DNA of 49,298 nt from Candidatus Yanofskybacteria bacterium. GTDB taxonomy: Bacteria; Patescibacteriota; Minisyncoccia; 2-02-FULL-40-12; IGHO2-01-FULL-4-A. Under the pieces are notes generated by a model. That model was not told the DNA's origin. It searched no databases and saw only the letters and a list, made by a program, of their open reading frames with translations. Both the position numbers and the translations under genes were made by a program. Location: assembly GCA_016185545.1 (NCBI GenBank), contig JACPNJ010000002.1, positions 1 through 49,298 on the forward strand. The letters run 5' to 3'. Positions within the stretch are counted from its first letter, which is position 1; the number at the start of each line of letters is the position of its first letter. Below, one piece after another: positions 19,320 through 48,893 of this stretch.

Positions 19320-19431
19320 GGTTAACCGATTCAAATTCTAGTTCTAGTATAGCATGGAAACATAGAGAAAATAACAAAACTGTTGATAATAAATGAGATA
19401 ACCAAACATTTTATTTCAATTAATATCCGAT

Positions 19432-19466
19432 CATAATAAAAGCCCCGTTACGGGGCTTTTATTATG
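19432..19466. terminator. Perfect hairpin, probable terminator
   Basis: cataataaaagccccgt-t-acggggcttttattatg. Confidence 0.75.
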
Positions 19467-19698
19467 GGAAGGGACCAAGTCATCAGTATTTATCCTGTCT
19501 GGTTCATTTAGGTTTGTTTGGTTGTCGTGGACGTTCTAACACTTGGGTATTGGCATTCAAAATCCCTTGTGAAACTATTAATAGGTTTATTAATGTTTTG
19601 ATAAATTTAATAAGTATTTTTTGTCTATGGATATAATTATTATATGGTATAGCCTGATTTTAAATAATTTTTTAATTTAAATGGTGTTGCATGCTTAT

Positions 19699-20994
19699 TT
19701 ATCTAAACTTTACCCCCCCCCTCACCTTTACTCCTCCTCTGACCTTAATATCGGGAGCGCTAGTCGGTTCAGTATAGTTAAAATAGCCGCTGAATTTAAA
19801 AAGCGGATCGCCTTGAGCGCTCCAGCTGGCTGGAAGGGTGCTAACACTGCAGATATAACTCGATTGGCTGGCCGCGACGGTGTCATATTCGTTCATCCAT
19901 TTGGTACCGTCAACTGAAAAAGCGGGACCATTAGAAGCAGTGGCAATCCAATATGTAGTCCCATTTATCAAAGAAAAGGTACCAGTCCCGGAAATGGCAT
20001 AACGGGTTTTGGTGGCGTTTAAAGATAATACACTGCTTATGCGATCAAGACGCGTAGTTGGACCGCTGCTGTAAAGGCCAAGCTCAACAGTATCACTAGC
20101 AGCACCTGTATCAAGCCTGCCATACCAACTGCCGCCGGAAATGGTGGAACCAGTGGCTCCCGGAAAAGCGCCGGCATTGTAAGCCAACGCGCAATCATCC
20201 GTACCATCCTCGCTCGCGCCGTCACCTGTGAATCCGTAAGTCGGGTCAACTGTTACCGGATAAGCGGCGTTGTCTAAAAAATCACGCGGCACAGTAACGC
20301 TCAAAACCCCGTCGGCGTAGGAAAGCTTAGCCCATATTTCCTTGCCCGTGGCGTCAATTATTTTGGGTCGGAATATGTGCATTACTTTTCCCGCGGCATA
20401 ATTAATATCCCCGATTCTGTGGTTGCGCTTGGTTTTGGAATAGACAGCATAAGAACCCACTACATTTTCCGGTCGATAAGACGTTCGTTTTCCGTCTTTG
20501 TCAAAACATTCCGTTTCAGTGCAGGACACGGACCTGGGATTTTTGTTACCGTCCACAAAGTCCTCATCCAGCGGTTTTTGATAAAAGAAATCCAAATCTT
20601 CCCAGCCGTCAAGCGTGAAATCAAATTTGTTGCTCGTGGGGTTTTCTTTTAAAATAAGTTCTACTTCAACTCCGCCGTCTTCCATATGACTCGCGGCCGC
20701 GAGCGGATACGCGTGAATTTCTTCTTTTTCGCCTTTCCACTCCATCCTGTTAGTCAAAAATGTTCTTTCGCCGGGAACTTGAAGTTGGGGGTAAGAAACG
20801 CCCAAACTTACTTCCCCGTTCCATTTATTCAAGGTTACTTTTGGCTGGGTTCTAAGCAGTTCTACATTTATTGTTCCGGCATTTGCCAAGGTTGATTTTA
20901 TCTCAATTTTATATTTATCCGTTTTTTCTGTAGATAAACCGAATTCAACAACAAAAATTAAGGCTATTATCGACAAACCTAAAAATAGTTTCAT
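19699..20994 (-). CDS. Secreted hypothetical protein with YPVxVDP-ending domain and C-terminal (V/I)K(V/I)RGG repeat tail
   Basis: N-terminal hydrophobic signal; FLDNAAYPVTVDPT motif as seen in N-terminal domains of wall-associated/virion proteins; ends IKVRGGVKVRGGVKFR. Confidence 0.8.
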   Translation of the reverse strand: MKLFLGLSIIALIFVVEFGLSTEKTDKYKIEIKSTLANAGTINVELLRTQPKVTLNKWNGEVSLGVSYPQLQVPGERTFLTNRMEWKGEKEEIHAYPLAAASHMEDGGVEVELILKENPTSNKFDFTLDGWEDLDFFYQKPLDEDFVDGNKNPRSVSCTETECFDKDGKRTSYRPENVVGSYAVYSKTKRNHRIGDINYAAGKVMHIFRPKIIDATGKEIWAKLSYADGVLSVTVPRDFLDNAAYPVTVDPTYGFTGDGASEDGTDDCALAYNAGAFPGATGSTISGGSWYGRLDTGAASDTVELGLYSSGPTTRLDRISSVLSLNATKTRYAISGTGTFSLINGTTYWIATASNGPAFSVDGTKWMNEYDTVAASQSSYICSVSTLPASWSAQGDPLFKFSGYFNYTEPTSAPDIKVRGGVKVRGGVKFR

Positions 20995-21000
20995 TTTAAA

Positions 21001-24000
21001 TTATTTTATTTGTTCTATGCCTACGGAATAGAAGGTGGAAGGACTTGATTGGTTATTATATTCGGTTTGTACCCAATCGGCGGATAAGACCGAGTTTACA
21101 ATTCTAACCTCATCGAACTTGCCATGCCAGCTTCGGTTGTTCGTTGGAATTCTATTTCCAATAACATAAGCATCCGCATTTACGCTGGCAATCCCGGATG
21201 CATTGAAGTTGATGATAAGCGGTTTGGCCGCGCCGTCCACGTAAAAAATCGGGTCATTCGATGCCAAGCTTGAGTCGTAAGTTACCACAATATGATGAAA
21301 CACACCCGCGGACGGCGGCGCCACGGCCCATTCCGCCTGTCCGTTTGAGAAAAAACGGGAATAATACAACGCATCACCGTTATAGACATTGTTGTAAAGA
21401 AGCTCGGCATTTGCCCCTCCCGTTTGTTTTTCAAAATAGCGTCCCAAACCGTTTTCTCCTTCGCTGGTTCGAAGCGCCCAAAATTCATAGCTCCTCGCGC
21501 TGTTATTTAACGTAACATCTGTTCTTATAGAATCGCCTGCACCGTCGAAGCTAGCCGCTCCATCAATCCTCCCGCTTGTTGCCACAGACCCAGAAATTGT
21601 TCCGCTTACACCATTTACGGAATTGACGGCGTTCAGTGTCGCGCCGTTTGATAGATGCCATACACCCGTGTACCCGGCGTTCCATGTTTCGGCCACATTG
21701 CCCTGGAAAGAAGAAATGGCCGGGTTACCGTAGCAGACCGCGAAGGTCGTATCCGAGAGATGCGAAACATTCGGTATCTTTACCCATGCATTCACGACTC
21801 CAGTCGCGGAGTTATAAGTTTCCATTTCCCAATTCAGAAGCGTAAGGCACGTTGAGTCGGTGGCAAAAACAATATCATGTCCGTTGCTGTTTTGCGCCTT
21901 TCCCCCGTTCGGAACAGTGGCAAGGTAATTGTACGTACCGCTTACGAGAACAGGAAAGTTGGCTTGATCGGTATTTGGAACCTTGAGGTGATCAATTGTA
22001 ATGACGCGAGAGAAAGAATAGCCGCTTGCTGGCAATGACAGAGTTGTCGCGCCCACCATAGTGGACTGCCCCGATACATTTCCCGCCGCGTCAAACGCGG
22101 ATACTGTGTAAGAATACGCGGTTGAAGGGGTAAGACCGGTGTCATTATAGGAGGTTGTGACACTTGTTCCCGCTTGGATTCCATTTCTGAATATCCTGTA
22201 ACCGGTTACTCCCACGTTATCCGTGGAAGCGGTCCAGGAGAGATTGATTTGGGAAGATGAGATGACAGTGGCGGTGAGGTTAGTGGGGACGGAAGGGGCG
22301 GTGGTGTCGGGAGTAGTCGTCGTAAACGTAAAGTCTCCGGAAGTCGCCAGGTTTCCGGATGAATCTTTGGATTTAACTCGGTAGTGCCAGAGGGTTGAGG
22401 CGGAAAGTCCTGAAATAGTTTGGGAGTGCGCGGTAACGGCGCTTGTATTAAGTATCGTGGAGTTTCCGTACGCAGTGGTAAGCCCGTATTCTACTTGGGT
22501 GTCAGAAGATTCATCTGTCGTCCAGGTTATCGTGGCGCCGGAGGAAGTGACGGAAGAGGAGGTGACTGCTGAAATGACGGGGGCGGTGGTGTCGGGAGGC
22601 GGAGGGGTAGCACCACTACCGGAAGTGAGTTTTAAAATATACGCATTGTTGTCTATGTCGTTAACGAGAACGTGGGCGTTTAGTGAGGGAATATATCGCA
22701 ACCGCCCAAACGTGCCGTTAAATTCACTGGAGTTTATCGGTCCGCCGGCAAAAGTCTGCGAGGTGCAGGTTTTAGTATCCGGATTAAATAAGTAAACCGT
22801 ATTGCCGCTATTCGGCCAGCCGACAATGCGGTCTAAAATCGGATCATAGCTCAAGCCGGGATATCTTGCGCTCATGAGCGCTCCGCAACCGCCAGTGGAG
22901 GCCTGCGCGCTCCAATCCTGAACCGCGTAATTGCTCCCCGGAGCAATACTTATAGCTTTGACAAAAGCTCCAGAGTTTCCGAATTCAGTTCCAAAAAAGA
23001 TAAAAAGTTTTTTTACAGGATCAATAACGCCGTTAGACTCGAAAGGTACGGATTCGAAGCCGTTTAATAAAGCATATGTGTTTGTGTCGTAATTATACGA
23101 CCAAAATTTGCTTGTGTCTGTGGCAAATACTAAGCGAGTATTTGGGTCATAATCCGAAAGGACCACATTATTGAAGACGCTTGCCTGGGTTGGCCCGTTT
23201 GTGGGGTCCATGCGAGTCCATTGGAGCGTGGATAAATTCAAAGTCCATGTCGCGGAAGTGGTATTTCCAGCCGCACAGGCCCTGGAACCGCCATGAGCAT
23301 ACATCCTATCGGCATGCTGAACATACGCCAAACCGCCATAAGTGTGCCGGGAATTGGGTTTGCCGTCGGCCATAGTCTCCGGACAGGAAGAATCAGCAAT
23401 TGGCACAGAGGGATCATTCAGGCGGGTCATGGTAATCGGATTGGCACCCAGGTTCAGAGAATATATTTCATTTCCATAATAGTCGTTGTGTCCCCCTCCC
23501 CAGATGATCAGCCGGTCACGCATAGTATCCGCCATGGCGCCACCCCACGCGCCAGTAACCCATTCGCAAAAAAAACCAAAATCATACGTTGTTCCGCCAA
23601 AATTATTCGGCGGACAAACCGCACGAATCTTCGTATTCAAAAGCTCGTTCCAACCGATGTTGTAGCTACTGACTGTTGCCACAGCTGTCGTAAACGTAAA
23701 GTCCCCCGACGTTGCCAGATTGCTTGAGGCGTCTTTTGATTTGACTCGGTAGTGATAGAGAGTGGAAGCAGTAAGGCCGGTAAGATTGGCTGAATGAGCA
23801 GCAACGAGCGAGGTATTAAGTGCGGTCGAAAAGCCATAGCTCGTCGTGGTGCCGTATTCTACTTGGGTATCTGACGCTTCATTTGTCGTCCAGGTTATCG
23901 TGGCGCCGGAGGAAGTTATGGAAGAGGAGGTAACTGCTGAAATAACGGGGGCTGTGGTGTCGGGAGCAGTCGTCGTAAACGTAAAGTCTCCGGAAGTCGC

Positions 24001-24867
24001 CAGGTTTCCGGATGAATCTTTGGATTTAACTCGGTAGTGCCAGAGAGTGGAAGCGGAAAGTCCGGAGATAGTTTGGGAATGCGCGGTAACAGGGCTTGTA
24101 TTAAGTATCGTGGAGTTTCCGTACGCGGTGGTAAGCCCGTATTCTACTTGGGTGTCAGAAGATTCATCTGTGGTCCAGGTTATCGTGGCGCCGGAGGAAG
24201 TGACGGAAGAGGAGGTGACTGCTGAAATGACGGGGACGGTGGTATCGGGAACAGTTTCAAGCGTCGCATATAAAGACCAGTGAGAGGACGTTGTTGAGGG
24301 AGCCGTTGAAAACGTAACCGGCATAGTTCCATATATAAAAGAGTAGTACCTGCCGCTTATGCCGGCGGTAACGTTTTTTCTGAAGGCAAGGGTATTGCTA
24401 CTTGGCAGATAAGCCAGCCAGTATGTACCCGCGGGCAGAGAGACGGGACTGATGACGTTGGTCGTGTTCCAACCGGTGACAGGAGTGAAACTCGCGGTTT
24501 CAGCTCGTTTGGCACCGGGTCCTCCTCCGGGGCCGGTGGCGTCATAGATGCCAAGGCGGAGAGAGCCGGCGGCGGTAGTAATATAGAAAGAGAGGCTTTG
24601 GATAGTGGCGGATTGAGAGAGTAAGGTGTTTTGGGCTACGAGGAGATTAGCGTTTCTACTGTCATCAAGACTTAAGATGTTAGTTTCTCCGATGGTGATG
24701 GCTGCAGCCAGTACATATCCTCTATTATTATTTCCCAAGGGCTTGTCAAAAGTTAGGACTTGCAAATGCTGAACGAAAATCAAGACTAAAACCGCCAAGA
24801 AAAGCGCTGCCAAGAAAAGCGCTGCTTTCCTTAGAGAAGAACTAAAATCATTAAATGTTATTTTCAT
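21001..24867 (-). CDS. Secreted Fn3 + Kelch-like propeller + DUF2341/LamG-like protein
   Basis: Signal/TM segment, Fn3 repeats, LIIWGGGHNDYYGNEIY propeller-like domain, NFPVLVS...DIVF...WVKIP (DUF2341-like) and a LamG C-terminus (WHGKFDEVRI...SADWVQTEYNNQ). Confidence 0.85.
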   Translation of the reverse strand: MKITFNDFSSSLRKAALFLAALFLAVLVLIFVQHLQVLTFDKPLGNNNRGYVLAAAITIGETNILSLDDSRNANLLVAQNTLLSQSATIQSLSFYITTAAGSLRLGIYDATGPGGGPGAKRAETASFTPVTGWNTTNVISPVSLPAGTYWLAYLPSSNTLAFRKNVTAGISGRYYSFIYGTMPVTFSTAPSTTSSHWSLYATLETVPDTTVPVISAVTSSSVTSSGATITWTTDESSDTQVEYGLTTAYGNSTILNTSPVTAHSQTISGLSASTLWHYRVKSKDSSGNLATSGDFTFTTTAPDTTAPVISAVTSSSITSSGATITWTTNEASDTQVEYGTTTSYGFSTALNTSLVAAHSANLTGLTASTLYHYRVKSKDASSNLATSGDFTFTTAVATVSSYNIGWNELLNTKIRAVCPPNNFGGTTYDFGFFCEWVTGAWGGAMADTMRDRLIIWGGGHNDYYGNEIYSLNLGANPITMTRLNDPSVPIADSSCPETMADGKPNSRHTYGGLAYVQHADRMYAHGGSRACAAGNTTSATWTLNLSTLQWTRMDPTNGPTQASVFNNVVLSDYDPNTRLVFATDTSKFWSYNYDTNTYALLNGFESVPFESNGVIDPVKKLFIFFGTEFGNSGAFVKAISIAPGSNYAVQDWSAQASTGGCGALMSARYPGLSYDPILDRIVGWPNSGNTVYLFNPDTKTCTSQTFAGGPINSSEFNGTFGRLRYIPSLNAHVLVNDIDNNAYILKLTSGSGATPPPPDTTAPVISAVTSSSVTSSGATITWTTDESSDTQVEYGLTTAYGNSTILNTSAVTAHSQTISGLSASTLWHYRVKSKDSSGNLATSGDFTFTTTTPDTTAPSVPTNLTATVISSSQINLSWTASTDNVGVTGYRIFRNGIQAGTSVTTSYNDTGLTPSTAYSYTVSAFDAAGNVSGQSTMVGATTLSLPASGYSFSRVITIDHLKVPNTDQANFPVLVSGTYNYLATVPNGGKAQNSNGHDIVFATDSTCLTLLNWEMETYNSATGVVNAWVKIPNVSHLSDTTFAVCYGNPAISSFQGNVAETWNAGYTGVWHLSNGATLNAVNSVNGVSGTISGSVATSGRIDGAASFDGAGDSIRTDVTLNNSARSYEFWALRTSEGENGLGRYFEKQTGGANAELLYNNVYNGDALYYSRFFSNGQAEWAVAPPSAGVFHHIVVTYDSSLASNDPIFYVDGAAKPLIINFNASGIASVNADAYVIGNRIPTNNRSWHGKFDEVRIVNSVLSADWVQTEYNNQSSPSTFYSVGIEQIK

Positions 24868-29664: not shown

Positions 29665-30031
29665 TCTCAAAATTACAAACCTCGCTCCGCCCCTATCATT
29701 TTTCTCTCGGTGTCCCTCACTCCTTAAGAGTCTGGCTCAATCTAGAACTGCCGACGCAGACAGTATCAGATTTTCTTACAACGTCATGCCTTCCTGCAAA
29801 TCTTCCTTAGCGGCCTATCGTTCCTAGCAATTTGCGGTTATCCATTCCCCCTCCGCCTACTGGCTCCGGGGCCCGCAAATTGCCAGCGGAACAATATACG
29901 TCCACTTCGTCAATTTGCTAGTCGGCAGACGAATGACGAAAATCTGATACTGTCTGCTTACAAAATCACATTTGGTACAATGTTCGAAAAATGACAAGGG
30001 CTTCGCTTAGACCGGTTTGTAATTTTTGAGA
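29665..30031. mobile_element. Nested-palindrome (MITE-like) element, family B
   Basis: Termini tctcaaaattacaaacc / ggtttgtaatttttgaga; perfect 20-bp internal stem 29756-29775 / 29938-29957; further inner stems; partial homologue at 48761. Confidence 0.65.
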
Positions 30032-30111: not shown

Positions 30112-30454
30112 GTTTTTAATCCCTCAAAAATTAGCCCAAGCGGAAGCAGTGCCTTGTCCGAGCGACCTCGCAGCCAAGTAAGTCAGCGAACCGAGAAATA
30201 GGATTTGTCTAAAATTCGGGGTCGAGCCAGCAAATTATTAAATTGTAATCAATTTAATAATTTGCACTCCAAAGAGGCGAGGGGGCTATACAAAGCTTAG
30301 CCCAGCCTTACTTAGGAGTTCAACTCCTAAGTAAGGCTGGGCGGGCACCAGAATTTTAGAAACAAATCCTATTTCAAATGAGCTGATGAGCGCAGGCGAG
30401 GACTAAGCGAGGGCAAGGTACTGCTGGAGCCTAATTTTTGGTGAGATTAAAAAC
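30112..30454. repeat. Nested-palindrome element downstream of lemA
   Basis: Successive arms gtttttaatc/gattaaaaac, caaaaattag/ctaatttttg, gcagtgccttgtcc/gggcaaggtactgc and gaaataggatttgt/acaaatcctatttc; internal 16-bp and 21-bp perfect hairpins. Confidence 0.8.
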
Positions 30455-35683: not shown

Positions 35684-35902
35684 CTTAAAATTACAAACTT
35701 AACCAGCAAAAAAAACTCATTGACCGGCTACACGCGCGTGTTTTGCTGGCCCTTCGGGACAGGCGCAAAACGCGCGCGCCTCCGCCGGTAAACCCGCCCC
35801 AGCTCTTTACTGGTAAAGAGCTGGGCTAGAACTCTATCTTAGCAATAATCTTTGTGATAAAAATCGCTGATTGCTATCAGCTCCCGTGTTTGTAATTTTA
35901 AG
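35684..35902. mobile_element. Nested-palindrome element with family B termini
   Basis: Perfect 15-bp termini cttaaaattacaaac / gtttgtaattttaag; inner hairpins cgcgcgtgttttgc/gcaaaacgcgcgcg and cccagctctttac/gtaaagagctggg. Confidence 0.6.
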
Positions 35903-37591: not shown

Positions 37592-38530
37592 TTACTCCCA
37601 TTGATACGCTTCTCTTACCCACTCTATCAGCTTTTTAGTTTCCCTGAAACGATCTGCCGAGCCGAGTATCACGCTTATCACATAATCATTGTCACCGCTT
37701 ATATTAACACCCAGCACCATGGTTCCCAATGCGCCGTCGGTATATCCGGTTTTTCCGATTTTTATACCAGGAATCTGATCAAGAAGCTGGTTGGTATTAA
37801 TCAAATGATGTTTTATTCTCCCGTCCAGCGAACTTACATCTGTTGTCGTCTTTTTTAGCGTTTGCAAAATCAATTCGTAATTTTCCGCGTAACGAACTAA
37901 CTTTACCAAATCAGCCGCGGTCGAAAAAGCATCATGATCGTCCAATCCGGCAGGATCGATAAATTTTGTATTGTACATTCCGAGTATTTTTGCTTTCTCA
38001 TTCATCTTTTCCACTAAATTCAGCCCCCTCTTCTGCGCTTCTGCGGCAAGGGTTAATGCCGCATCATTAGATGATTTTACCAGCAAAATTTCCAATAAAT
38101 CAACAACCTGCAGCTGTTCGCCCTTATAAAGGTCGGCGCCGTTATTGTCCACATTGATGGTTTCTGCCGGTACGGTAAAAACCCATTCTAAATCCAAATT
38201 TTCAAGCACAACCACGGCTGTCATAAGTTTGGTAATAGAGGCAATCGGTAAACGTTTATTTATATTTTTTGCAAAAAGAAAACGGCCTGACCCGACATCA
38301 AACAATGCGGCGGCTTTAGCGTCTATTTCCGGTTCGGGCACATTGAAATCACGGATAGGACTATAATTGGTGTCCGTTACCGGTAATAAAAATGCCCGCC
38401 CGCCACCACTTAGAGGCTGAGCCTCTAAGTTGGCATTTGGGACATCTATCGGATAACCGAAAATAAAAAAAACCGCGCCGCTTATCATTACGCCCAAAAC
38501 AATTGTGATTAAAATTACGTTTAGCCGCAT
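37592..38530 (-). CDS. D-alanyl-D-alanine carboxypeptidase (peptidase S11)
   Basis: SxxK (ASITKLMT), SxN (SSNDAA), KTG (GKTGYT). Confidence 0.93.
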   Translation of the reverse strand: MRLNVILITIVLGVMISGAVFFIFGYPIDVPNANLEAQPLSGGGRAFLLPVTDTNYSPIRDFNVPEPEIDAKAAALFDVGSGRFLFAKNINKRLPIASITKLMTAVVVLENLDLEWVFTVPAETINVDNNGADLYKGEQLQVVDLLEILLVKSSNDAALTLAAEAQKRGLNLVEKMNEKAKILGMYNTKFIDPAGLDDHDAFSTAADLVKLVRYAENYELILQTLKKTTTDVSSLDGRIKHHLINTNQLLDQIPGIKIGKTGYTDGALGTMVLGVNISGDNDYVISVILGSADRFRETKKLIEWVREAYQWE

Positions 38531-38537
38531 TTAGCTC

Positions 38538-38700
38538 GGGCTTGACGGGCAATACCTCCTATCACCATTTGAATTCCCAGCGAGAATTCTGCATTCCGTC
38601 AAAAGCGTGGATTTTACTCGCAGTGTTTTACTATTATACTGCTCGCAAACCGTGCAATCCACTCTTTTGACGGTGCTATGAGGCATTGCCTGTCAAGCCC
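38538..38700 (-). repeat. Structured repeat family A, copy 1 (inverted relative to copies 2 and 3)
   Basis: Reverse complement matches 45855-45990 closely: atgcctcatagcaccgtcaaaagagtggattgcacggtttgcgagcagtataatagtaaa...; own outer stem gggcttgac/gtcaagccc. Confidence 0.9.
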
Positions 38701-39288
38701 TCATGATAACCCGCCAGTCATTTCCAAAACTGCGTTTAATGCGCTAGGCAACTCAGTTACGCCGTCGCTACCGCTAAAATGACCTTTGTCGTGCTCAATT
38801 ATGATTTTAGTGTTCAGCCTCTCTTCGAATAACTTTTTATTTTCTTCAAAGGGCACAACCGGATCATTATCACCAAAAATTGCTACGAAATTATTTGTTA
38901 AGCCCTTTATTAAATTAAAATTGATCGGGGTTTCAATCCAAGGTCTGCCAATTATTTTTTCTTCTTCTGTTTCTAAATCGCCCAGAACAAACCAGCCAGA
39001 TACAAAAACCGTACCGCCAACTTTTTTATCTACGGGTAAACTTTCCAAATATCGCAAAATGGTCTGACAACCGATACTGTGGCCAACAAAAAAAGTATTT
39101 TCATTAACATCACCGACAATTTTGGAAAGATGCGAAACCCACACCTCAATTTTTGGCACAGCAGGTTCTGGCATAGCCGGAACTTGCACCTCAAAACCGC
39201 GTGATTCTAATTCTTTTTTCAACCACGGAAACCAGCCCTCTTCGGGGTAACCGTCCCAACCGTGAATTATAAAAACCCCTTTTTTCAT
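38701..39288 (-). CDS. RBBP9/YdeN family alpha/beta hydrolase
   Basis: IIHGW...WFPWL, GHSIG nucleophile elbow, DNDPVVP, GHF. Confidence 0.92.
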   Translation of the reverse strand: MKKGVFIIHGWDGYPEEGWFPWLKKELESRGFEVQVPAMPEPAVPKIEVWVSHLSKIVGDVNENTFFVGHSIGCQTILRYLESLPVDKKVGGTVFVSGWFVLGDLETEEEKIIGRPWIETPINFNLIKGLTNNFVAIFGDNDPVVPFEENKKLFEERLNTKIIIEHDKGHFSGSDGVTELPSALNAVLEMTGGLS

Positions 39289-39310
39289 CTTAGACTTAAG
39301 AGAGAGAACC

Positions 39311-39505
39311 CCGTCAAAAATTATTTAAAGCGAGCCATTATGCCTTATAGCACCGTTGAAAGAGTGGATTGCACGGTCGCCGAGCAGTATAATGTTTGGG
39401 CGGTAGCCCACTGCGAGGCGAATCCACGCTTTCAACGGAGCGACGCAACCTCGCTGGGGTTGCTAGCGGTGATAGAAGGCATGATGGCGAGCTAATTTTT
39501 GACGG
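39311..39505 (+). repeat. Structured repeat family A, copy 2
   Basis: Core atgccttatagcaccgttgaaagagtggattgcacgg...aatccacgctttcaacgg...gcaacctcgctggggttgc...ggtgatagaaggcat; extra outer stem ccgtcaaaaatta/taatttttgacgg. Confidence 0.9.
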
Positions 39506-39514
39506 TGGCGAGTG

Positions 39515-40933
39515 TTATTTTTTAATTTGTAAATGTAGCTCTTTCAACTGTTTTTCTTCCAATTCGGAGGGACTGTTCATCATAAGGTCTCGGGCATCAC
39601 CGGTTTTGGGAAAGGCAATCACCTCGCGGATATTTGGTTCGTTGGCAAGTATCGCCACTAGGCGGTCCAATCCCCAAGCGATACCGCCATGCGTCGGCGC
39701 ACCATAACTGAACGCCTCTAGCATATGCCCAAAATTTTTGGTAATTCTTTCCTCATCTAATCCTAAAATTTCAAAAACTTTTTTTAATGCTTCGGCCTTG
39801 TGGTTACGGATACTGCCACCGCCTATTTCAAAACCATTCAATATAATATCATACTGCGTAGTCAAAATCTCACCGATATTTTTCTTTTGCATCAGCCATT
39901 CCATGTGTTCCGGTTTTGGCGCGGAAAAAGGATTATGCGTGAAAGTCCACTTCTTCGCTAAAGCTTCGAAGTGCGCAGCACCCTCTTTTTCTTTTTCAAA
40001 AAACGGAAAATCAATCACCCAGCAGAATGCCAAAAGATCGGGGTCGTCAGGGTGTTCACGTAAATCTGGCCTGTCAGTCTTGTATTTTTCCATTGCCTCT
40101 TTGTAAGTTAACCGCGGGAACGGAATTTCCTGAATCTTTTTATTCGGCATTACATTTTTTATCAACTCAATCAATAATGCTTCATTCACCGCCATCACAT
40201 CTTCGCGCTCCACAAAAGACATTTCCATATCCATCTGTGTAAATTCCGGCTGTCTGTCGCCGCGCGTATCCTCATCGCGAAAACTTCTGGCGATTTGGAA
40301 ATATTTCTCAATACCAGCCACCATCAAAAGCTGTTTATATTGCTGGGGCGATTGCGGCAAGGCGTAAAATTTGCCGGAATACAAACGAGAAGGCACCACA
40401 TAATCCCTCGCTCCTTCGGGAGTAGATTTGGTCATAATCGGAGTTTCAATTTCCAAAAATCCCTCCCTATCAAAAAAATCTCGAATAAACTTGGTTACCC
40501 GATGCCGCAGAGCCATATTTTTGGATAATCTCTCGCGCCGCAGATCAAGATAACGGTATTTCATCCGATTTTCCTCACCTATTTCGCGTCCGTCCGTATC
40601 AAGAGCAAAGGGCGGCGTAGCCGCCTCTGATAAAACCTCAATTGATTCCGGCTGTACTTCTATGTCGCCAGTTTCAATTTCTTTATTTACCATCGCTGAC
40701 GGCCGTTTAGCAACCTTGCCTGACACTTTTAAAACCCACTCCGAGCGCAGAGTTTCGGCAGTTTTATACAGTTCTTTATCCTGTGGCGTAAAAACCAGTT
40801 GAACAATTCCCGATTTATCGCGCAAATCAATAAAAATTATCTTACCGTGATCCCGCCGGCCATGCACCCAACCAAAAAGTTCCACGTTTTCATCAGCTTT
40901 ATTTTTTGTATAAGCAATCAGTGTCCTACTCAT
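39515..40933 (-). CDS. aspS: Aspartate--tRNA ligase (short form lacking the GAD insertion; likely non-discriminating)
   Basis: GWVHGRRDHGKIIFIDLRD, YRYLDLR, PEGARDY, LPQSPQ, FRDED...RQPEFTQ, GGGSIR, HGGIAWGLDRL. Confidence 0.96.
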   Translation of the reverse strand: MSRTLIAYTKNKADENVELFGWVHGRRDHGKIIFIDLRDKSGIVQLVFTPQDKELYKTAETLRSEWVLKVSGKVAKRPSAMVNKEIETGDIEVQPESIEVLSEAATPPFALDTDGREIGEENRMKYRYLDLRRERLSKNMALRHRVTKFIRDFFDREGFLEIETPIMTKSTPEGARDYVVPSRLYSGKFYALPQSPQQYKQLLMVAGIEKYFQIARSFRDEDTRGDRQPEFTQMDMEMSFVEREDVMAVNEALLIELIKNVMPNKKIQEIPFPRLTYKEAMEKYKTDRPDLREHPDDPDLLAFCWVIDFPFFEKEKEGAAHFEALAKKWTFTHNPFSAPKPEHMEWLMQKKNIGEILTTQYDIILNGFEIGGGSIRNHKAEALKKVFEILGLDEERITKNFGHMLEAFSYGAPTHGGIAWGLDRLVAILANEPNIREVIAFPKTGDARDLMMNSPSELEEKQLKELHLQIKK

Positions 40934-40967
40934 AATTATATGGTAGTACACAAATTAAATTTAGGCA

Positions 40968-41003
40968 AAAACAAAAGCCAGCTTATGAGCTGGTTTTTGT
41001 TTT
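40968..41003. terminator. Probable terminator hairpin
   Basis: aaaacaaaagccagct-tatg-agctggtttttgtttt. Confidence 0.7.
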
Positions 41004-41170
41004 ATGAACGCTCAGTCTTGTCCCACTATACTTTTGTTGAAAATAACGCCATCTACATAATCTCACCCCGCCCCATCTGAAATAAGGGTCGCTTTAAGCA
41101 ATTAACTAATACCACGACTCGCCTTCGGCTCTAGTTATTTTTACACAAAACCCTAGCCCAGAAAGGGCGG

Positions 41171-41230
41171 GGTAAATATCTGCGACCGTACTCGTTCGCT
41201 TCGCTTACTGCGTGCGGGCAGCTATTTACC
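41171..41230. repeat. Hairpin whose outer arm overlaps the rpsG stop codon
   Basis: ggtaaata...tatttacc encloses ctgc/gcag and ccgtac/gtgcgg around a ttcgcttcgc loop. Confidence 0.55.
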
Positions 41231-41693
41231 ACGCAAAATGCGCGAAAGCTTTATTGGCTTCCGCCATACGATGAGTATCGGTTTTCTTTTTGATGGCCAC
41301 GCCGGTGTTGTTGTAGGCGTTGATAATTTCCTGCGCCAGTTTTTCCCGCATCGGTTTGCCCTTGCCCGATCGGGCCGCGTCAATTATCCAGCGAAACGCA
41401 AGCGCAAGTTTGCGCTCTCCCCTCACCTCGTAGGGCACCTGGTAATTGGCGCCGCCGATTCTGCGCGATTTCAGTTCCATTTGGGGACCGGCATTATTAA
41501 ACGCGGCATCCAGCACTTCAAGCGCCGGTTTTTTTAATTCTTTTTCCGCCAACTCCAAAGCTCCATAGACGATTTTCTCGGCTATGGATTTTTTGCCGCT
41601 TTCCATTACTTTATTGATAAACTTGGCCACCAAAAGCGACGAATATTTATAATCCGGTTCCTGTATTATTTTTTTCTTTATTGGCTTACGCAT
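41226..41693 (-). CDS. rpsG: 30S ribosomal protein S7
   Basis: [41 protein letters not shown]. Confidence 0.98.
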
Positions 41694-41717
41694 ATTTGTT
41701 ATTGCTCACCTTGGATT

Positions 41718-42596
41718 TTATTTTGGGTACCACCGAACCGGCCGAATCCACCCGTTATATTTTCCCGTCTCGTAAGGTATTATACCCATATCGGCAAGCG
41801 ACCGTTCAGCCTCAATGCCTTGAGGCAATGATCTTACACGAATAAATAGGTCGTCTGCCAAATCAGTGTTTGGGCTTGGATATGGCGTACCTATTATTTC
41901 CAAAATTTCTTTTTTATTGAATTCTATATTTTCAATTTCAATAATTAAACCGGGCACAATATCTTCCAGGGTCGGGGTCAACCAGGTTTTTTCCTTAACA
42001 AATCTAGGATTTTTGGACGGTCTTTCGCGATCCCATTCTTCATCCCAATGCTTAATGACATCCTCAATTGATTCCTCGCTCTCTTTTGTTTCTTGCTCTG
42101 CAAATTGATGCATCGGCATTTTAGTTTTTGGCTGTTTGCTTTCTGCCTCTCCTCGAATAATGGCATCAATCTCCGGCAGGTAGCTAAGAAACTTATTTTT
42201 AAGCACCGTGAGCGCAAACCCTCTTCGGCTCTGGTTTTTAAATATGGTCGGACTTAATTTTTTGACTAGCTCTCCCAATTCCTTGTTGATTGCGCTCTTG
42301 GCCCCCTCATAATTCCCGCTTGCGATAATATCAAAAATTTTGCCGTGAAGTTCTTCAAAAACGTTTTCCTTTAAACTCTCCGCCGCTATTTCCCAAAATA
42401 ATTTTTCCCTCATAACCTCATCGGGCTCTAAATTTTTCAATTGTTCGCGTGTTAGTTTAAGAAGCGGCTCAATGTCTTCTTCGCCGTGGCCTTCAATTAC
42501 GTCTCGCACAGACTCGCTAATCTCTTTTTTCAAATTCAAATATTCTTTTGATTCTTGTATGCTTTTTTTACCTAATTTTTCTAGAGTGGTTGTCAT
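41718..42596 (-). CDS. Hypothetical protein inserted between rpsL and rpsG
   Basis: 292-aa Glu/Lys-rich ORF, co-oriented with both neighbours. Confidence 0.8.
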   Translation of the reverse strand: MTTTLEKLGKKSIQESKEYLNLKKEISESVRDVIEGHGEEDIEPLLKLTREQLKNLEPDEVMREKLFWEIAAESLKENVFEELHGKIFDIIASGNYEGAKSAINKELGELVKKLSPTIFKNQSRRGFALTVLKNKFLSYLPEIDAIIRGEAESKQPKTKMPMHQFAEQETKESEESIEDVIKHWDEEWDRERPSKNPRFVKEKTWLTPTLEDIVPGLIIEIENIEFNKKEILEIIGTPYPSPNTDLADDLFIRVRSLPQGIEAERSLADMGIIPYETGKYNGWIRPVRWYPK

Positions 42597-42625
42597 TATA
42601 ACTAACAGCTAGTTATCGGAAATAT

Positions 42626-43039
42626 CTAGCTCTTAGGCATCTTGGCTCCATATCTGCTTCTGCCACGCTTCCTGTTTTCAACTCCGGAAGCATCCAGCCG
42701 GCCGCGTATTATATGGTATTGCACGCCAGGCAAGTCCTTAACCCTGCCGCCGCGCAATGTTACTACGGAATGCTCCTGCAAATTATGGCCAACGCCGGGA
42801 ATGTACGCCGTTACTTCCATGCCATTGGTCAGCCGCACACGGGCGAATTTGCGCAAAGCGGAATTCGGTTTCTTGGGAGTCATCGTGCCGACTTTTATAG
42901 CCACGCCGCGTTTGAACGGCGCCGGATAATCAACCGGCGTATTTTTCTTGCTGTTAAATCCAAACGACAAAGCCGGCGATCTGGTTTTAGCTTTGGACTT
43001 CTTGCGCGGATGTTTTAATAACTGGTTTAAGGTAGGCAT
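42626..43039 (-). CDS. rpsL: 30S ribosomal protein S12
   Basis: [36 protein letters not shown]. Confidence 0.99.
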
Positions 43040-43173
43040 ACACTATCAGCGAATAACGAATTTATACTAAATATACTAATTTACGAAAAGTTTAGGGTTC
43101 ATTTATTTGTATATTCGTAACGACGTTATTCGTTGGTAATTTTTCGGCTAATTAAAAGGGGGTTCAAACCTCC

Positions 43174-43785
43174 CTATCCTACTATAAGCCGAAAGATTAA
43201 ATTAATCAAGGGGTAAACAAAAGGAAATATAAAAATTAAAAAAATAAAGAAAAGAACTAAACCGTATCTCATAAGGAATAGCTTGAGAGCGGCAAATCTA
43301 TTTGGTAGAAATGCCAAAAGCAGCCAATGGCCGTCAAGAGGAGGAATTGGCGCCAAATTGAATATCGCCAAAAGAAGGTTTATTCTAACGATGAAACTTA
43401 TCAATAAAGGCAGCGCCGTTGATTCTAAACTTGAGGGTAAAAATCTTAAAAATAATCCGAAAAGAACTGCCAACACAAGGTTAGATGCCGGTCCTGCCAG
43501 CGCTACTTTTGCTGATCCGAATTTGAGATCGGTTAGATTGGCGGGATTATGCGGTACGGGTTTAGCATAACCAAACACAAATGAAGATCTGGCTAGAATC
43601 AAAAGAAGCGGCAGTATAACCGAACCGAACATGTCCAGATGTTTCAATGGATTTAGGGTGAGACGGCCGGCATTTTTTGCAGTATCATCACCCAAACTGT
43701 TGGCAACGATACCATGAGAAACCTCATGCACAACAACAGAATAAATGAAAACAACTGCTACGAAAACGCCTTCTAAAATTCCCAT
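43174..43785 (-). CDS. Site-2 protease family (M50) membrane metalloprotease
   Basis: HEVSH, GRLTLNP, LAGPASN, FNLAPIPPLDG. Confidence 0.94.
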   Translation of the reverse strand: MGILEGVFVAVVFIYSVVVHEVSHGIVANSLGDDTAKNAGRLTLNPLKHLDMFGSVILPLLLILARSSFVFGYAKPVPHNPANLTDLKFGSAKVALAGPASNLVLAVLFGLFLRFLPSSLESTALPLLISFIVRINLLLAIFNLAPIPPLDGHWLLLAFLPNRFAALKLFLMRYGLVLFFIFLIFIFPFVYPLINLIFRLIVG

Positions 43786-43787
43786 GT

Positions 43788-43816
43788 TTGCTAATTTAGC
43801 AGATTTTTGTTATATT
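43788..43816 (+). promoter_or_regulatory. sigma70 promoter for rpmB, overlapping the divergent M50 promoter
   Basis: TTGCTA, 17-nt spacer, TGt-TATATT. Confidence 0.6.
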
Positions 43817-43832
43817 GTAAATTGATCATGCC

Positions 43833-43967
43833 CCGCTCCAATTTTGCAAAGTAGTGAGTGGCAGTGCCTCTCCCGCGAAACCACTATTCGTGGCCGGGCA
43901 CTGCAAAAGCTGGGCAAGTTTAATTTTTATCTAAAATTAAGAGGAGCAACGGGTAAAATTTGAGCGG
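43833..43967. repeat. Nested-hairpin element in the rpmB leader
   Basis: ccgctccaattttgc / gtaaaatttgagcgg encloses gcagtgcc/ggcactgc and ttaatttt/aaaattaa. Confidence 0.6.
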
Positions 43968-44008
43968 AGTGCTTATTTTGTTACCCAATCGCTTCACTTT
44001 TGGACAAA

Positions 44009-44191
44009 ATGGCAACTCGTTGCCCTCGTTGCGGAAAAAAACCGATGACGGCGAACAAACGAAAACTTTTGCGCGGTAATTATAATCCCGTAAACCGCTA
44101 CCGCAAATATCCCAATCTTCAATGGGCTCATGTTGACGGTAAGAGAATCAGGATTTGCACCTCGTGTATTAAAACGCTAAATAAAGCTTGA
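44009..44191 (+). CDS. rpmB: 50S ribosomal protein L28
   Basis: CPRCGK...R.YPNLQ...RIRICTSCIK, zinc-binding L28 type. Confidence 0.88.
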   Translation: MATRCPRCGKKPMTANKRKLLRGNYNPVNRYRKYPNLQWAHVDGKRIRICTSCIKTLNKA

Positions 44192-44694
44192 TGGGTAATT
44201 TTCTTGAAAAATCCGCGACTCAAAAAGAAGTTATTTTAGAATCTGACAATTCTGGACCAAAACAGATTTTAGAAAAATATTCAGATATAATTGGTAACGA
44301 TGGCATTTTTAAAAAGATCGCCGGATCTATAGAGGACGGCTGGCAGGAACTTAGCCCAAAAGGTAAACAAGACATATCTAAAGAGGTTGAAACCCTAATT
44401 AATAAATTGATAGATTATCATGATTCTTATGTTAATCTAAAAGGACTTGCCGGTAGGCGGTTTTATTTTGAAGATACTAAAAAACTTCAGGAAAGCGCCA
44501 AGGCAACAGATATGCGCGAGAAAATATTGCACGATGCCTTTGTGGATTCGCTTAATATACTTTCAAGAAAAATGAAGAAACTGGGACTTGATAACTCTTG
44601 GCGCGCAGATGAAGAGATATATGGCCTAACACCGAAAGCGGCTCGGGAAAAGCCAAAACTTTGGATGTTTAAGATTTTTAGAGAAAAAATATAA
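44191..44694 (+). CDS. Hypothetical helical protein (possibly DUF3232-like)
   Basis: TGATG coupling with rpmB; motif ILHDAFVDSLNILSR. Confidence 0.7.
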   Translation: MGNFLEKSATQKEVILESDNSGPKQILEKYSDIIGNDGIFKKIAGSIEDGWQELSPKGKQDISKEVETLINKLIDYHDSYVNLKGLAGRRFYFEDTKKLQESAKATDMREKILHDAFVDSLNILSRKMKKLGLDNSWRADEEIYGLTPKAAREKPKLWMFKIFREKI

Positions 44695-44703
44695 ATCGGG
44701 GTA

Positions 44704-44777
44704 CGGGCCGTCGTATAATGGTAGTACGCGAGGCTGGGGGTCTTGCAGCGGGAGTTCGATTCTCCCCGGCCCGACCA
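44704..44777 (+). tRNA. tRNA-Pro(GGG)
   Basis: CGGGCCG/CGGCCCG-A-CCA, anticodon loop ctGGGgg, T-arm GGGAG-TTCGATT-CTCCC. Confidence 0.95.
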
Positions 44778-44779
44778 CA

Positions 44780-44815
44780 ATCAAAAACCATACGATTAAT
44801 CGTATGGTTTTTGAT
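44780..44815. terminator. Perfect 36-bp palindrome, bidirectional terminator between convergent genes
   Basis: atcaaaaaccatacgatt-aatcgtatggtttttgat. Confidence 0.8.
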
Positions 44816-44821
44816 ATAAGA

Positions 44822-45307
44822 TCATGACCTTTGCCACTCGGTTTTAACGCCCTTGAGCTGGTTTTCCGTCATTACCAATTCATCGTATATTCCGTCAATT
44901 AGCTGATATGATTTTGCTTCTTCAAGAGTTACCCACTTGAAATCATCGGTTTCATCATGTTGAAGCGCAACTTCACCCGATTGATAGTCAGCCAAACAAG
45001 AAATGACCAGGGATGGATTTCCGTCACCGTGCACCGTGGCCAAACTTGTCACATACGTGATGTTTGTGATTTCCAGTCCGACCTCTTCCTTAACCTCGCG
45101 ACGCAAAACTTTTTCTAATACATTATACCAATAATCAGTCGCGTCTTTGGGTAAGTTAATGTAATCATCCGTCTCCAGTTTGCCGCCGGGGACCGTCCAC
45201 ATACCAGGAAAGCGTTTTTTATTTGAAGAACGGCGGGTAATCAAATACTTGCCGTCTTTGACGATAATCGCAGTAATGGCCACTTCGTGTAAAAATTTAT
45301 TTTCCAT
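44822..45307 (-). CDS. NUDIX hydrolase
   Basis: WTVPGGKLE...LRREVKEEVGL Nudix box with an insertion. Confidence 0.92.
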   Translation of the reverse strand: MENKFLHEVAITAIIVKDGKYLITRRSSNKKRFPGMWTVPGGKLETDDYINLPKDATDYWYNVLEKVLRREVKEEVGLEITNITYVTSLATVHGDGNPSLVISCLADYQSGEVALQHDETDDFKWVTLEEAKSYQLIDGIYDELVMTENQLKGVKTEWQRS

Positions 45308-45322
45308 AAATTAAACAATAAC

Positions 45323-45826
45323 TCAATCCTCCTTTAAAGTAAATTTCGTATATGATGGCTTATGTTCTACTAATTCTTCCGGCTTAAACCAAACATTAAT
45401 TTCTGTCTGCGCTTCCTCGGGTGAAGCCGAGGCGTGAATAAGATTAAAAACTCCGATTTTCTTGTCATCAGCATAACCATATGAAACGTGGGTATAGTCA
45501 CCCCTGATAGTGCCAGACGCGGCAACCTTGGGTTCGGTAGCGCCCACCATTTTTCTTGCAACCTCAACCATTTCTATACCCTCAAGTGCTAATGCCAAAA
45601 TAGGTCCGGAGGTCAGCATATCAATCATCCTTTGCCTAATTACATCTCCCCTCCTTTTGGCCAAATCTTCGGTATAATGCTTCATGGCAGTATCTTTTTC
45701 AGAAACAAGAACTTTCATGCCGACAATTTTAGCGCCTACACGCTCAAAACGAGTGATTATTTCACCGATTATTCCTCGATCAAGAGCATCAGGTTTTAAT
45801 AAAATTAGGGTTCTCTGCAGTTTCAT
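45323..45826 (-). CDS. ndk: Nucleoside diphosphate kinase
   Basis: RTLILLKPDA, GTIRGDY, NLIHAS. Confidence 0.96.
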   Translation of the reverse strand: MKLQRTLILLKPDALDRGIIGEIITRFERVGAKIVGMKVLVSEKDTAMKHYTEDLAKRRGDVIRQRMIDMLTSGPILALALEGIEMVEVARKMVGATEPKVAASGTIRGDYTHVSYGYADDKKIGVFNLIHASASPEEAQTEINVWFKPEELVEHKPSYTKFTLKED

Positions 45827-45838
45827 TGTTTTTAATTT

Positions 45839-46005
45839 TAGAGTTGGGTGAGTAATGCCTCATAGCACCGTCAAAAGAGTGGATTGCACGGTTTGCGAGC
45901 AGTATAATAGTAAATCACTGCAAGCAAAATCCACGCTTTTGACGGAACGCAGCAACCTCGCTGGGGTTGCTAGTGGTGATAGGAGGCGTTACTCACCCAA
46001 CTCTA
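45839..46005 (+). repeat. Structured repeat family A, copy 3
   Basis: Same core as copies 1 and 2; 23-bp outer stem tagagttgggtgagtaatgcctc / gaggcgttactcacccaactcta overlaps the last codons of the upstream gene. Confidence 0.9.
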
Positions 46006-46879
46006 TTTTATAATTTTGACCGTCAAGTATTAATTCAACGGCACCATCAATATCCGTTCTATAATATTTTATACCATAATTTTCCAGCCGCTCCAAAACT
46101 TCTTGGTGTGGATGCCCGTATTTATTTTTCTTTCCGACTTCAATAAACGCCAGCACCGGGTTAACTGCTTTCAAAAAATTCTCAGTCGTTGAAGTTTTAC
46201 TGCCATGATGTCCAATTTTTAAAAATTTTGCTGACAAGTTTGTACCGCTGGTTAATAATTTATATTCCGTCTTGGCCTCGGCATCACCCGTAAACATTAT
46301 ACTATCATTGCCATAATCCAAACGAAAAATTACCATAGCGTCGTGAGGATTTTTTAATACTTCTTGGTCGTCAATTTTAGGATAAAATGGGTATAAAATA
46401 GTAAGTTTTGCGCTACCGCCCAAATCAATAACTTGGCCGGCTTGAGCTTGAGTTGTCGGAATTGAAGATTTCTCCTTGGTCCACTCTGCATATTCCGCGG
46501 TGTTATATGGAGTGTGATTTTCAATAATTTGCCCGACTTCATATCTTTTCAATACCTCTATGAGTCCCGTAACGTGGTCGGCGTGCGGATGAGTCAAAAT
46601 AACAAGATCAACTGAGTGGTCGTAAAACGGCATAACCCGGCCAAGTTCTTGCAAGATTTTACTATCAGGTCCGCCATCAATTAGAATTTGATTGCCGTTA
46701 AAATCAATCAGTTCCGCGTCACCCTGTTCGACGTCAAGAAAATAAACATGGAGCAGGCCGTCAAAACCGGCAACCGTCGGCAACGCCCAAAAACTTAAAA
46801 TTGCCGCGCTGGCAATCAGGGCAAAAACCAACCACTCAAGTTTAGATAATTTTCTGGAAAGCGACTCGCTAAGCATCAA
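45989..46879 (-). CDS. ComEC/Rec2-type metallo-beta-lactamase domain protein
   Basis: FLDVEQGDA, LIDGG, THPHADHVTG, FTGD, KIGHHGS, YGHPH, RTDIDG. Confidence 0.93.
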   Translation of the reverse strand: MMLSESLSRKLSKLEWLVFALIASAAILSFWALPTVAGFDGLLHVYFLDVEQGDAELIDFNGNQILIDGGPDSKILQELGRVMPFYDHSVDLVILTHPHADHVTGLIEVLKRYEVGQIIENHTPYNTAEYAEWTKEKSSIPTTQAQAGQVIDLGGSAKLTILYPFYPKIDDQEVLKNPHDAMVIFRLDYGNDSIMFTGDAEAKTEYKLLTSGTNLSAKFLKIGHHGSKTSTTENFLKAVNPVLAFIEVGKKNKYGHPHQEVLERLENYGIKYYRTDIDGAVELILDGQNYKIELGE

Positions 46880-48760: not shown

Positions 48761-48893
48761 CAAAAATTACAAACCAAGCTCACCCCCTAATTTTTCTTCC
48801 TGTATCATGCCTTCCTATAAATTTTCCTCCTTGAGCTATTGTTACTAAAAATATGCGGTTATACATTCCCCCTACGCCTGCTGGCTCCGGGGG
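48761..48893. mobile_element. Truncated family B element (left half)
   Basis: caaaaattacaaacc terminus, plus blocks tcatgccttcct and tgcggttatacattccccctacgcctgctggctccgggg matching the interior of the 29665 element. Confidence 0.65.

Follow-up and report, generated by a model that had tools for sequence, protein, structure and literature searches.

Family A, a branched hairpin repeat dispersed among Paceibacteria-type Candidate Phyla Radiation genomes

A structured repeat at three sites of the window

The window analysed here is a 49,298-nt stretch of DNA from a Candidatus Yanofskybacteria bacterium (assembly GCA_016185545.1, contig JACPNJ010000002.1, positions 1 to 49,298). Its genes include those for a D-Ala-D-Ala carboxypeptidase, a serine hydrolase, a class II aminoacyl-tRNA synthetase, NDK, an MBL-fold protein and a NUDIX protein, and these are the neighbours of three copies of a repeat that we call Family A (Table 1). 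Family A is a real, previously undescribed and strongly structured repeat family of very small groundwater bacteria. The window's own genome, 853 kb in eight contigs, is referred to as G000 and its contigs by C numbers; related genomes carry G numbers of their own, and L numbers denote individual loci.

An initial annotation, made from the letters of the window, had placed three copies of about 160 nt at these sites, and the sequence itself, a repeat search of the window and the coordinates of a covariance model all agree with it. In the repeat search, copies 1 and 3 form inverted arms of 133 nt with 91% complementarity, and copies 2 and 3 are direct repeats (72 nt at 85% and 54 nt at 89%). 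BLAST matches between copies within the genome have E-values of 1e-31 to 1e-66. The compensatory changes that had been described are present: the long stem pairs CA with TG in copies 1 and 3 and TG with CA in copy 2, and the side hairpin is GCAACC/GGTTGC in copies 2 and 3 and GAATTC/GAATTC in copy 1. The outer stems differ between copies and still pair, as had been noted, with arms of 31 nt and 90% complementarity in copy 3. Five motifs had been called invariant. This is true among the three window copies and does not extend to the family, where, among the 59 distinct copies aligned below, ATAGCA occurs in 34, GGTGATAG in 31, TATAAT in 47 and the TCGCTGG-like loop in 53.

Table 1. Positions of the Family A copies in the window and of the parts of copy 3.
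Feature	Position	Strand	Description and basis
Copy 1	38530-38710	-	Full three-way-junction element (covariance model, 190.9 bits, E 1.3e-57); D-Ala-D-Ala carboxypeptidase gene start on one side, stop of a serine-hydrolase open reading frame (ORF) on the other; sense to both
Copy 2	39316-39504	+	TGAAAG/TCGCC subfamily, "type A" (covariance model, 182.8 bits); core enclosed by outer shell CGTCAAAAATTAT..GCGAG / GCGAG..TAATTTTTGACG; 3' end 35 nt from the stop of the class II aminoacyl-tRNA synthetase gene on the opposite strand
Copy 3	45831-46011	+	Model match, 206.2 bits
Copy 3, inserted unit proper	~45841-46003		163 nt (three-genome junction alignment)
Copy 3, direct repeats at borders	45834-45840 and 46004-46010		A/T-rich (three-genome junction alignment)
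Copy 3, P1 5' arm	45839-45861	+	Pairs with 45983-46005 (minimum-free-energy and consensus folds)
Copy 3, P1 3' arm	45983-46005	+	On the minus strand, end of the MBL-fold gene: final four codons (45992-46003), stop codon (45989-45991)
MBL-fold gene beside copy 3	45989-46879	-	
Copy 3, junction strand	45862-45869	+	AUAG then CACC; CACC pairs with GGUG at 45975-45978
Copy 3, second AUAG	45979-45982	+	Faces the first AUAG in a symmetric AUAG/AUAG internal loop
Copy 3, P2	45870-45943	+	Long bulged stem: GCAYGGU bulge, tandem GA/GA (or GA/AA) internal loop, apical hairpin loop starting UAUAAU
Copy 3, promoter-like motif	45880-45885 and 45903-45908	+	TGGATT and TATAAT, within P2
Copy 3, P3	45952-45970	+	Short hairpin with nearly invariant CUC-GCU-GGG tip, including a conserved U.G pair

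Size and distribution of the family

BLAST found 15 copies of Family A in G000. A covariance model was built from 14 of them, leaving out C1:144053, which has an insertion of ~75 nt in its 3' half. At E <= 0.1 this model gave 31 matches in G000. They comprise 17 distinct loci on the model strand (206-68 bits), 13 weak reverse-strand echoes (<= 50 bits) and one partial echo. Two further, more diverged relatives on C5 were found with nhmmer and a motif search. Copies are present on all eight contigs except C7.

The initial annotation had suggested that a covariance model be searched against genomes of the Candidate Phyla Radiation (CPR), and such a search of the order recovered the family in 32 of 105 genomes. 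By family of the order, and with G000 not counted, the positive genomes number 16 of 25 (f1), eight of nine (f4), one of eight (f2) and six of 62 (f3); the per-genome match counts include reverse-strand echoes. A scan with a 30-letter pattern, one genome per species, gave 64 stretches. Most are labelled as Yanofskybacteria, Paceibacteria/Paceibacterota, Minisyncoccia or Patescibacteria metagenome-assembled genomes (MAGs), and many as "uncultured Saccharibacteria." A few stretches are in one Buchananbacteria MAG and one Uhrbacteria MAG. The pattern had no match in viral contigs, and BLAST of Family A against phage and plasmid collections gave none. In the scans made, Family A is restricted to Paceibacteria-type CPR genomes.

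The family had been thought not to be a known riboswitch, ribozyme or repetitive extragenic palindromic (REP) sequence, and this holds. At gathering thresholds, Rfam 15 found three tRNAs in the window and no match to Family A. With E up to 10 over 38300-46300, the only models to hit the copies were three for microRNAs, at 18.9-21.5 bits against cut-offs of 58-95. We found no description of such repeats in CPR bacteria in the literature, supplementary files not covered.

Fold and covariation

The minimum free energy of copy 3 is -91.9 kcal/mol, compared to -45.1 +/- 3.9 for dinucleotide shuffles (z -12.1). The reverse complement folds nearly equally well (z -12.0). Thus, the energy shows that the repeat is a near-palindrome and cannot pick a strand. 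Units are 165-190 nt long, and longer in the copies where extra hairpins have been inserted. RNAalifold on a MAFFT alignment of the 14 copies from G000 gave a three-way junction with 51 pairs, 21 of which have compensatory changes. The closing stem, P1, has 13 pairs in the consensus model and is longer in many copies (23 pairs in the fold of copy 3). Its sequence is hypervariable, all 13 pairs have two-sided changes, and 97.3% of its cells are paired. A symmetric AUAG/AUAG loop and a CACC/GGUG helix make up the junction parts of the consensus. P2 is a long stem (helices 3-5, 95.5-98.9% paired) interrupted by a 7-nt bulge, GCAYGGU, and a tandem GA loop; the loop of its apical hairpin starts with UAUAAU, and some family members have no apical hairpin. 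P3 is a hairpin with a CUC-GCU-GGG tip, in which the pair 242/357 is U.G in 50 rows.

A larger alignment was made from 74 model matches (59 distinct) at fetched loci of 32 genomes. Standard pairs fill 96.7% of its 2938 cells, and two-sided changes occur in 49 of the 51 pairs. None of 500 shuffles reached the observed values, and pairing falls to 35-41% when the 3' partners are slid by 1-3 columns. The non-Watson-Crick cells are unevenly divided: G:U or U:G in 81 and A:C or C:A in 31 (59 copies, the conserved P3 U.G pair left out). By pair position, G:U is commoner at 23 of 50 and A:C at 12, and the MAFFT alignment of the G000 copies has 14 G:U against nine A:C. A double-stranded cruciform would penalise both mismatches equally, so the excess of G:U points to selection on one single strand, either RNA or single-stranded DNA (ssDNA). 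The view that covariation reflects selection on a single-stranded structure has thereby held up in the larger alignment. The single-strand fold of Family A is under selection.

We rejected a protein-coding reading. An ORF of 51-52 aa runs through copies 1 and 3, and its frame is broken by indels elsewhere, with apical loops that differ in length by 8 nt (copy 2) and 1 nt (C3:113032).

A second reading comes from the promoter-like motif. The initial annotation had taken TGGATT-N17-TATAAT for a possible portable promoter, and Family A might then be a sigma-70-type promoter scattered through the genome. The TAnAAT of the apical loop is kept, its third position alone varying in the G000 copies, and TGGATT-N17-TAnAAT is found in 37 of the 59 distinct copies. 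Four of the 15 BLAST copies aim the motif at the start of a same-strand gene; the other 11 run into the 3' end of an opposing gene. TGGATT matches the first consensus hexamer at three of six positions. A sigma-70 consensus scan gave 18 sites where 15.8 are expected from shuffles, and it listed none at the motif in any of the three window copies. Transcription starting after TATAAT would omit the 5' half of the fold, which counts against a promoter role. The compensated stems and the excess of G:U are left unexplained by a DNA promoter, and the apical hairpin is missing from some members. The claim of a portable promoter is not supported, and we regard it as highly improbable.

Genomic setting and insertion polymorphism

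Gene context is based on a crude longest-ORF gene call around the 15 BLAST copies. Each of the 15 either lies between genes or reaches a few bases into a gene end. Nine lie between co-directional genes (the model strand is sense in three and antisense in six), five between convergent genes and one between divergent genes. In 10 of the 15, the 3' end of the model strand is at most 90 nt from the stop codon of an opposite-strand gene, and U-rich tracts follow some copies. The model strand is on the presumed leading strand of replication in eight cases, on the lagging strand in eight and unclear in one; a replication-strand bias of the kind expected of IS200/IS605-type ssDNA elements was therefore rejected. 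Family A lies beside genes for M48 peptidase, RpoC, a class I synthetase, S41 peptidase, L25 and FtsH in six other genomes, some of them with as few as one to three matches. These six copies adjoin six unrelated genes, and we rejected the idea of a conserved "ancestral" locus in low-copy genomes. Family A has no host-gene association, and its neighbours are unrelated housekeeping genes.

The clearest insertion is that of copy 3. The gene order at this site is MBL-fold gene, element, ndk, NUDIX in both G000 and G006. G005 lacks the element, and 3 nt separate the first two genes there. In a three-way alignment, an A/T-rich word of 6-8 nt flanks the element on either side in G000 and G006, where the site is filled, and stands once at the empty site of G005. 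The word reads TAAAATAG-like on the gene-sense strand. The element supplies the end of the upstream MBL-fold gene, its last four codons and the stop. The C-terminus of the MBL-fold protein is ELGE in G000, ELDE in G006 and VN in empty-site G005.

The whole of G006 was compared with G000 by mapping flanks both ways, and 10 G000 copies have both flanks on one G006 contig. One of these sites is filled at the same position in G006, two are in regions with a copy in a different arrangement, and seven have no copy. The site of C1:90855 is empty in G001, G003 and G004. Copies at the same site in G000 and G006 are 77.9% identical and belong to different subfamilies, and each has a paralog elsewhere with which it shares 87-90% identity. 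Between type A copies at unrelated sites of the two species the identity is 91-92%, compared to 67-90% for the flanking DNA. This presence/absence polymorphism between related genomes supports the earlier proposal of a mobile element. Direct repeats of at least 5 nt flank 14 of 57 copies (3.3 expected), and most of them are the GCGAG word of the type A shell. Empty sites other than that of copy 3 are too diverged for a duplication to be judged. No RNA run was found to contain the region. The DNA contigs of the four data sets that do contain it end at the repeats, and none is joined across an empty site; the breaks in assembly at these loci are explained by the Family A repeats there.

The serine-hydrolase ORF (PF06821; window 38701-39288, minus strand) is bracketed by the inverted copies 1 and 2, and the whole block is missing at the orthologous site of G006. 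A composite transposon made of copy 1, this ORF and copy 2 is not supported, as the ORF was found in one of five congeners and has no Family A beside it there.

These data bear on a reading in which Family A serves the host as a structured RNA. It could be a stabiliser in the 3' untranslated region, an RNase processing site, a terminator-like insulator or a protein-sponging small RNA; dispersal would be secondary and the fold would be selected in situ. Covariation, conserved loops and the excess of G:U would all follow from this, as might the nearness of 3' ends to opposite-strand stop codons, the U-rich tracts and the greater similarity of non-orthologous copies in different species than of their flanks. 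However, the folded strand is antisense to the surrounding operon at six of the nine co-directional sites, and neither within the unit nor next to it did we find a conserved promoter or terminator. Neighbouring genes are not conserved, one of the 10 placeable sites is shared with the congener, and the copies at a shared site are of different subfamilies. A host-serving RNA is a serious alternative that we nevertheless consider rather unlikely.

Mosaic forms and other repeats

Type A copies are enclosed by an outer stem, TCAAAAATTAT...ATAATTTTTGA. At the copy-2 site of G006 the same outer stem holds a different repeat of ~210 nt, Family 2, with the ends TCAAAAATTACAAAC and GTTTGTAATTTTTGA. By BLAST, Family 2 has at least 10 long matches in G006 and five loci in G000, including one at window position 35687-35899. 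Two further sites have Family A in G006 and, at the corresponding place in G000, a third repeat (~300 nt). The third repeat is at C8:29631-29965 and C1:88520-88900 of G000, outside the window. The C1 site is the sole case in which both ends are seen, and there the third repeat lies within the same inner shell, GAGCCATTAT...TAATGGCGAGC. The third repeat and Family A also have the segment ACTGCGAGG in common. Short derivatives of 76 nt also occur, as does a hairpin with a 17-nt loop and the same shell. Family A belongs to a modular set of hairpin repeats.

It could be asked whether P1 is a pre-existing host hairpin into which the core was inserted at AUAG. We rejected this for the inner P1, as no stand-alone P1-like hairpin occurs in G000 or G006. 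Nesting of Family A in shells is possible, since the outer shell of type A is common to other repeat families and the short version with a 17-nt loop exists.

Sites that recombine as folded ssDNA, like the attC sites of integrons, or other targets of site-specific recombination, would share some of these properties. The structure of P1 is conserved above its sequence, folding is strand-specific, and finding different cores in the same outer stems at orthologous sites resembles cassette exchange. Family A copies are nonetheless dispersed in both orientations among housekeeping genes and do not form one-way arrays by an integrase (the integrase itself was not searched for). Their core sequence is far more conserved than that of attC, and copies 1 and 2 stand in inverted rather than direct orientation around the ORF between them. 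We think it exceedingly unlikely that Family A is of this kind.

Family 2 appears to be part of a superfamily of ~180-390 nt repeats whose ends are well conserved and whose interiors vary and fold strongly. About eight paired-end elements of this kind were seen in G000, and no autonomous parent was seen. Examples are the window locus on the minus strand, another at ~30125-30440 and G006:C4:93193-93404 (among L190-L194). A repeat of ~190 nt (L082:1940-2136; G000 C1:91290-91486) adjoins the C1:90855 copy of Family A and has many matches on other contigs of G002-G005. The window also holds repeats of other kinds. Many diverged direct repeats of 100-300 nt at 11820-24261 (families D1-D9) look like repeated domains of very large coding sequences. 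Two tandem 219-nt units with 96% identity and a spacing of 222 nt lie at 10169-10609 (D8). A 36-nt palindromic, terminator-like hairpin, CTAAAAAG..CTTTTTAG, occurs twice, at 433-471 and 4072-4107, with 83-86% identity (D16/I4). Lastly, a 101-nt direct repeat with 78% identity at 29771-29871 and 48792-48892 (D12) is possibly another dispersed family.

A probable mobile repeat and the search for a partner enzyme

Family A behaves as mobile DNA. The explanation that we favour, with a confidence somewhat above even, makes it a mobile repeat of Paceibacteria-type CPR bacteria that is non-autonomous and depends on its structure, and not a gene switch or promoter. Units insert into small gaps between genes, for the most part a short way beyond stop codons, and are gained, lost or replaced fast relative to the divergence of the flanking genes. 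With other repeat families of their genomes they form nested or mosaic versions. The fold would be kept since a trans-acting enzyme recognises the folded single strand during copying or moving, and that strand may be either ssDNA exposed in replication or repair, or a transcript. P1 would bring both ends together, and the invariant loops could be the recognition determinants. The scheme follows proposals made for REPIN-RAYT pairs and for repeats of the bcr1, ERIC (enterobacterial repetitive intergenic consensus) and RPE (Rickettsia palindromic element) type. The family itself, its fold, the strand-specific wobble pairs, the insertion polymorphism and the absence of a tie to particular genes are all observed, whereas how the units move, which enzyme moves them and whether RNA or ssDNA is folded are inferred.

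G000 does hold candidate enzymes. There are four Y1_Tnp/RAYT-like genes of 220-223 aa with the HUH motif, each flanked by its own REP, which is of the CTTAGAGGC type (18 sites) or the ACGACATCGCAAGTCGT type (17 sites, mostly inverted doublets). The two REP families and four genes look like REPtron-type systems in an 853-kb CPR genome. The CTTAGAGGCTSAGCCTCTAAG REP has 18 sites, one of which, at window 38409-38429, lies inside the called 5' end of the ORF 37592-38530; the REP/Y1 loci are L221-L223. There is also one gene for an IS481-family transposase (L225:1096-2055, plus strand), 1.6 kb from a Family A copy.

Several results weigh against a mobile repeat of this kind. No autonomous partner enzyme was found. 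The initial annotation had proposed looking for a co-occurring HUH, TnpB or reverse transcriptase (RT) gene, and that search came out negative. None of the four Y1/RAYT-like genes is flanked by Family A. Y1 genes occur in 19 of the 32 family-positive genomes and in 34 of the 73 family-negative ones, so there is no co-distribution, and G008, G009 and G016, which are 98-99% complete and have 14-16 model matches each (both strands counted), have no Y1 gene, also by protein query. TnpB (PF07282) had no match in the genome, and IS605-orfB and HEARO had no Rfam match, which speaks against an omega RNA or PATE of IS200/IS605. The ends of the IS481-type transposase are unrelated to Family A. No long element that carries the ends of Family A turned up in G000 or G006, and the sole far-spaced pair of shell ends encloses mreB and mreC. 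A target-site duplication is clear at one site only, and a general duplication is not established. The genomes are MAGs with contigs that break at the element, which makes absences and copy numbers uncertain. Related copies are not independent, so that the binomial p of 2.5e-6 for the excess of G:U is overstated. Conservation of unpaired nucleotides across four families of the order, together with compensatory change, is also expected of a functional RNA. Finally, fitting the larger alignment to the model biases it towards pairing; the slid controls and the independent MAFFT/RNAalifold result on the 14 G000 copies argue for a real signal.

An RNA-mediated mobile element, either SINE-like or ribozyme-bearing, would have its folded transcript recognised, for example by the genome's RT, and copied back into DNA. 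The RNA-like covariation with strand asymmetry suits such an element, as do the short duplication at one clean insertion site, the random orientation of copies and the presence of an RT gene. This RT is a stand-alone, group-II-intron-like or diversity-generating-retroelement-like protein of 336 aa (L224:1333-2343, minus strand), with relatives in 77 of the 105 genomes of the order. However, group-II/DGR-like RTs are found in 23 of the 32 family-positive and 54 of the 73 family-negative genomes, and are thus not associated with Family A. The unit has no internal promoter able to transcribe the whole of it and no tail or 3' signature, and known self-cleaving ribozymes gave no Rfam match, even with E up to 10. 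We judge RNA-mediated mobility to be very unlikely.

A more speculative suggestion, and quite an unlikely one, is that the three-way-junction core could be the active module of a replicator that is protein-less or parasitises host enzymes. In one version, the folded strand would present RNA polymerase with a -35-like box in duplex form and a TATAAT that is looped out, in the manner of single-strand origins and 6S RNA, and the element would be primed or transcribed wherever it lands. Alternatively, an undescribed ribozyme would cut and join the unit. If true, either version would give CPR bacteria a mobile element of a new class that lacks a transposase of its own.

Comparison with known repeats

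As a non-autonomous mobile repeat, Family A would join the structured repeats of the bcr1, ERIC, RPE and REPIN kind, judged by its behaviour. ERIC and RPE are imperfect palindromes of 100-170 bp, intergenic or at gene ends, with no known transposase, and RPEs can lie inside coding sequence. Family A is likewise palindromic and located between genes or at their ends, and copy 3, which supplies the last codons of a gene, recalls RPEs in coding sequence. In contrast to these, its fold is branched and in our scans it is confined to Paceibacteria-type CPR genomes; the likeness is one of behaviour only. The review PMC3184786, which has both ERIC and RPE in its table, describes RNase E cleavage induced by an ERIC downstream of a gene.

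The closest description is that of bcr1 in the Bacillus cereus group. In the passages of PMC3184786 that deal with it, bcr1 is a repeat of ~155 bp with a non-conserved distribution among related strains, 5-bp direct repeats and no transposase gene; it is transcribed, and compensatory base-pair changes keep its folded structure. Family A resembles it in length class, patchy distribution, short direct repeats that are clear at one site, lack of a transposase and compensatory changes. The host of bcr1 is of another phylum, however, and in Family A the fold is a three-way junction whose loops are invariant and which four families of the order have conserved. The two are likened by description only.

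With the REPIN and REP-RAYT systems, as portrayed in parts of PMC3116915 and PMC3733652, Family A shares hairpin-forming intergenic repeats that follow genes and stems that stay paired. Its host genome also has Y1/RAYT-like genes with flanking REPs of their own. Unlike REPINs, Family A flanks no Y1 gene and occurs in genomes without a detectable Y1. It is also branched, 4-8 times longer than a REP, and without an unpaired GTAG or CGTC tag.

By the definition given in a section of PMC3184786, Family A is similar to classical MITEs (miniature transposable elements with inverted repeats). It is small and multicopy (17 loci), with inverted ends, no conserved internal ORF, polymorphic insertion and one short duplication. 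In a MITE the terminal inverted repeat is a fixed binding site for the transposase, whereas the terminal stem of Family A varies with compensation, and its internal stems covary. Nor did we find a parent insertion sequence with the same ends in G000 or G006.

Significance

Genomes of CPR/Patescibacteria are smaller than 1 Mb and are usually described as streamlined. G000 carries at least 17 copies of Family A, several other families of hairpin repeats and four RAYT-like genes. This load implies that minimal genomes can retain structured DNA of a selfish or semi-domesticated kind. The model and the 59-sequence alignment could seed an Rfam or Dfam-type entry, and could prevent the annotation of these loci as small ORFs. 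Family A is a clean, well-aligned case in which to study how palindromic repeats without a transposase, such as RPE, ERIC and bcr1, move and why their folds are conserved.

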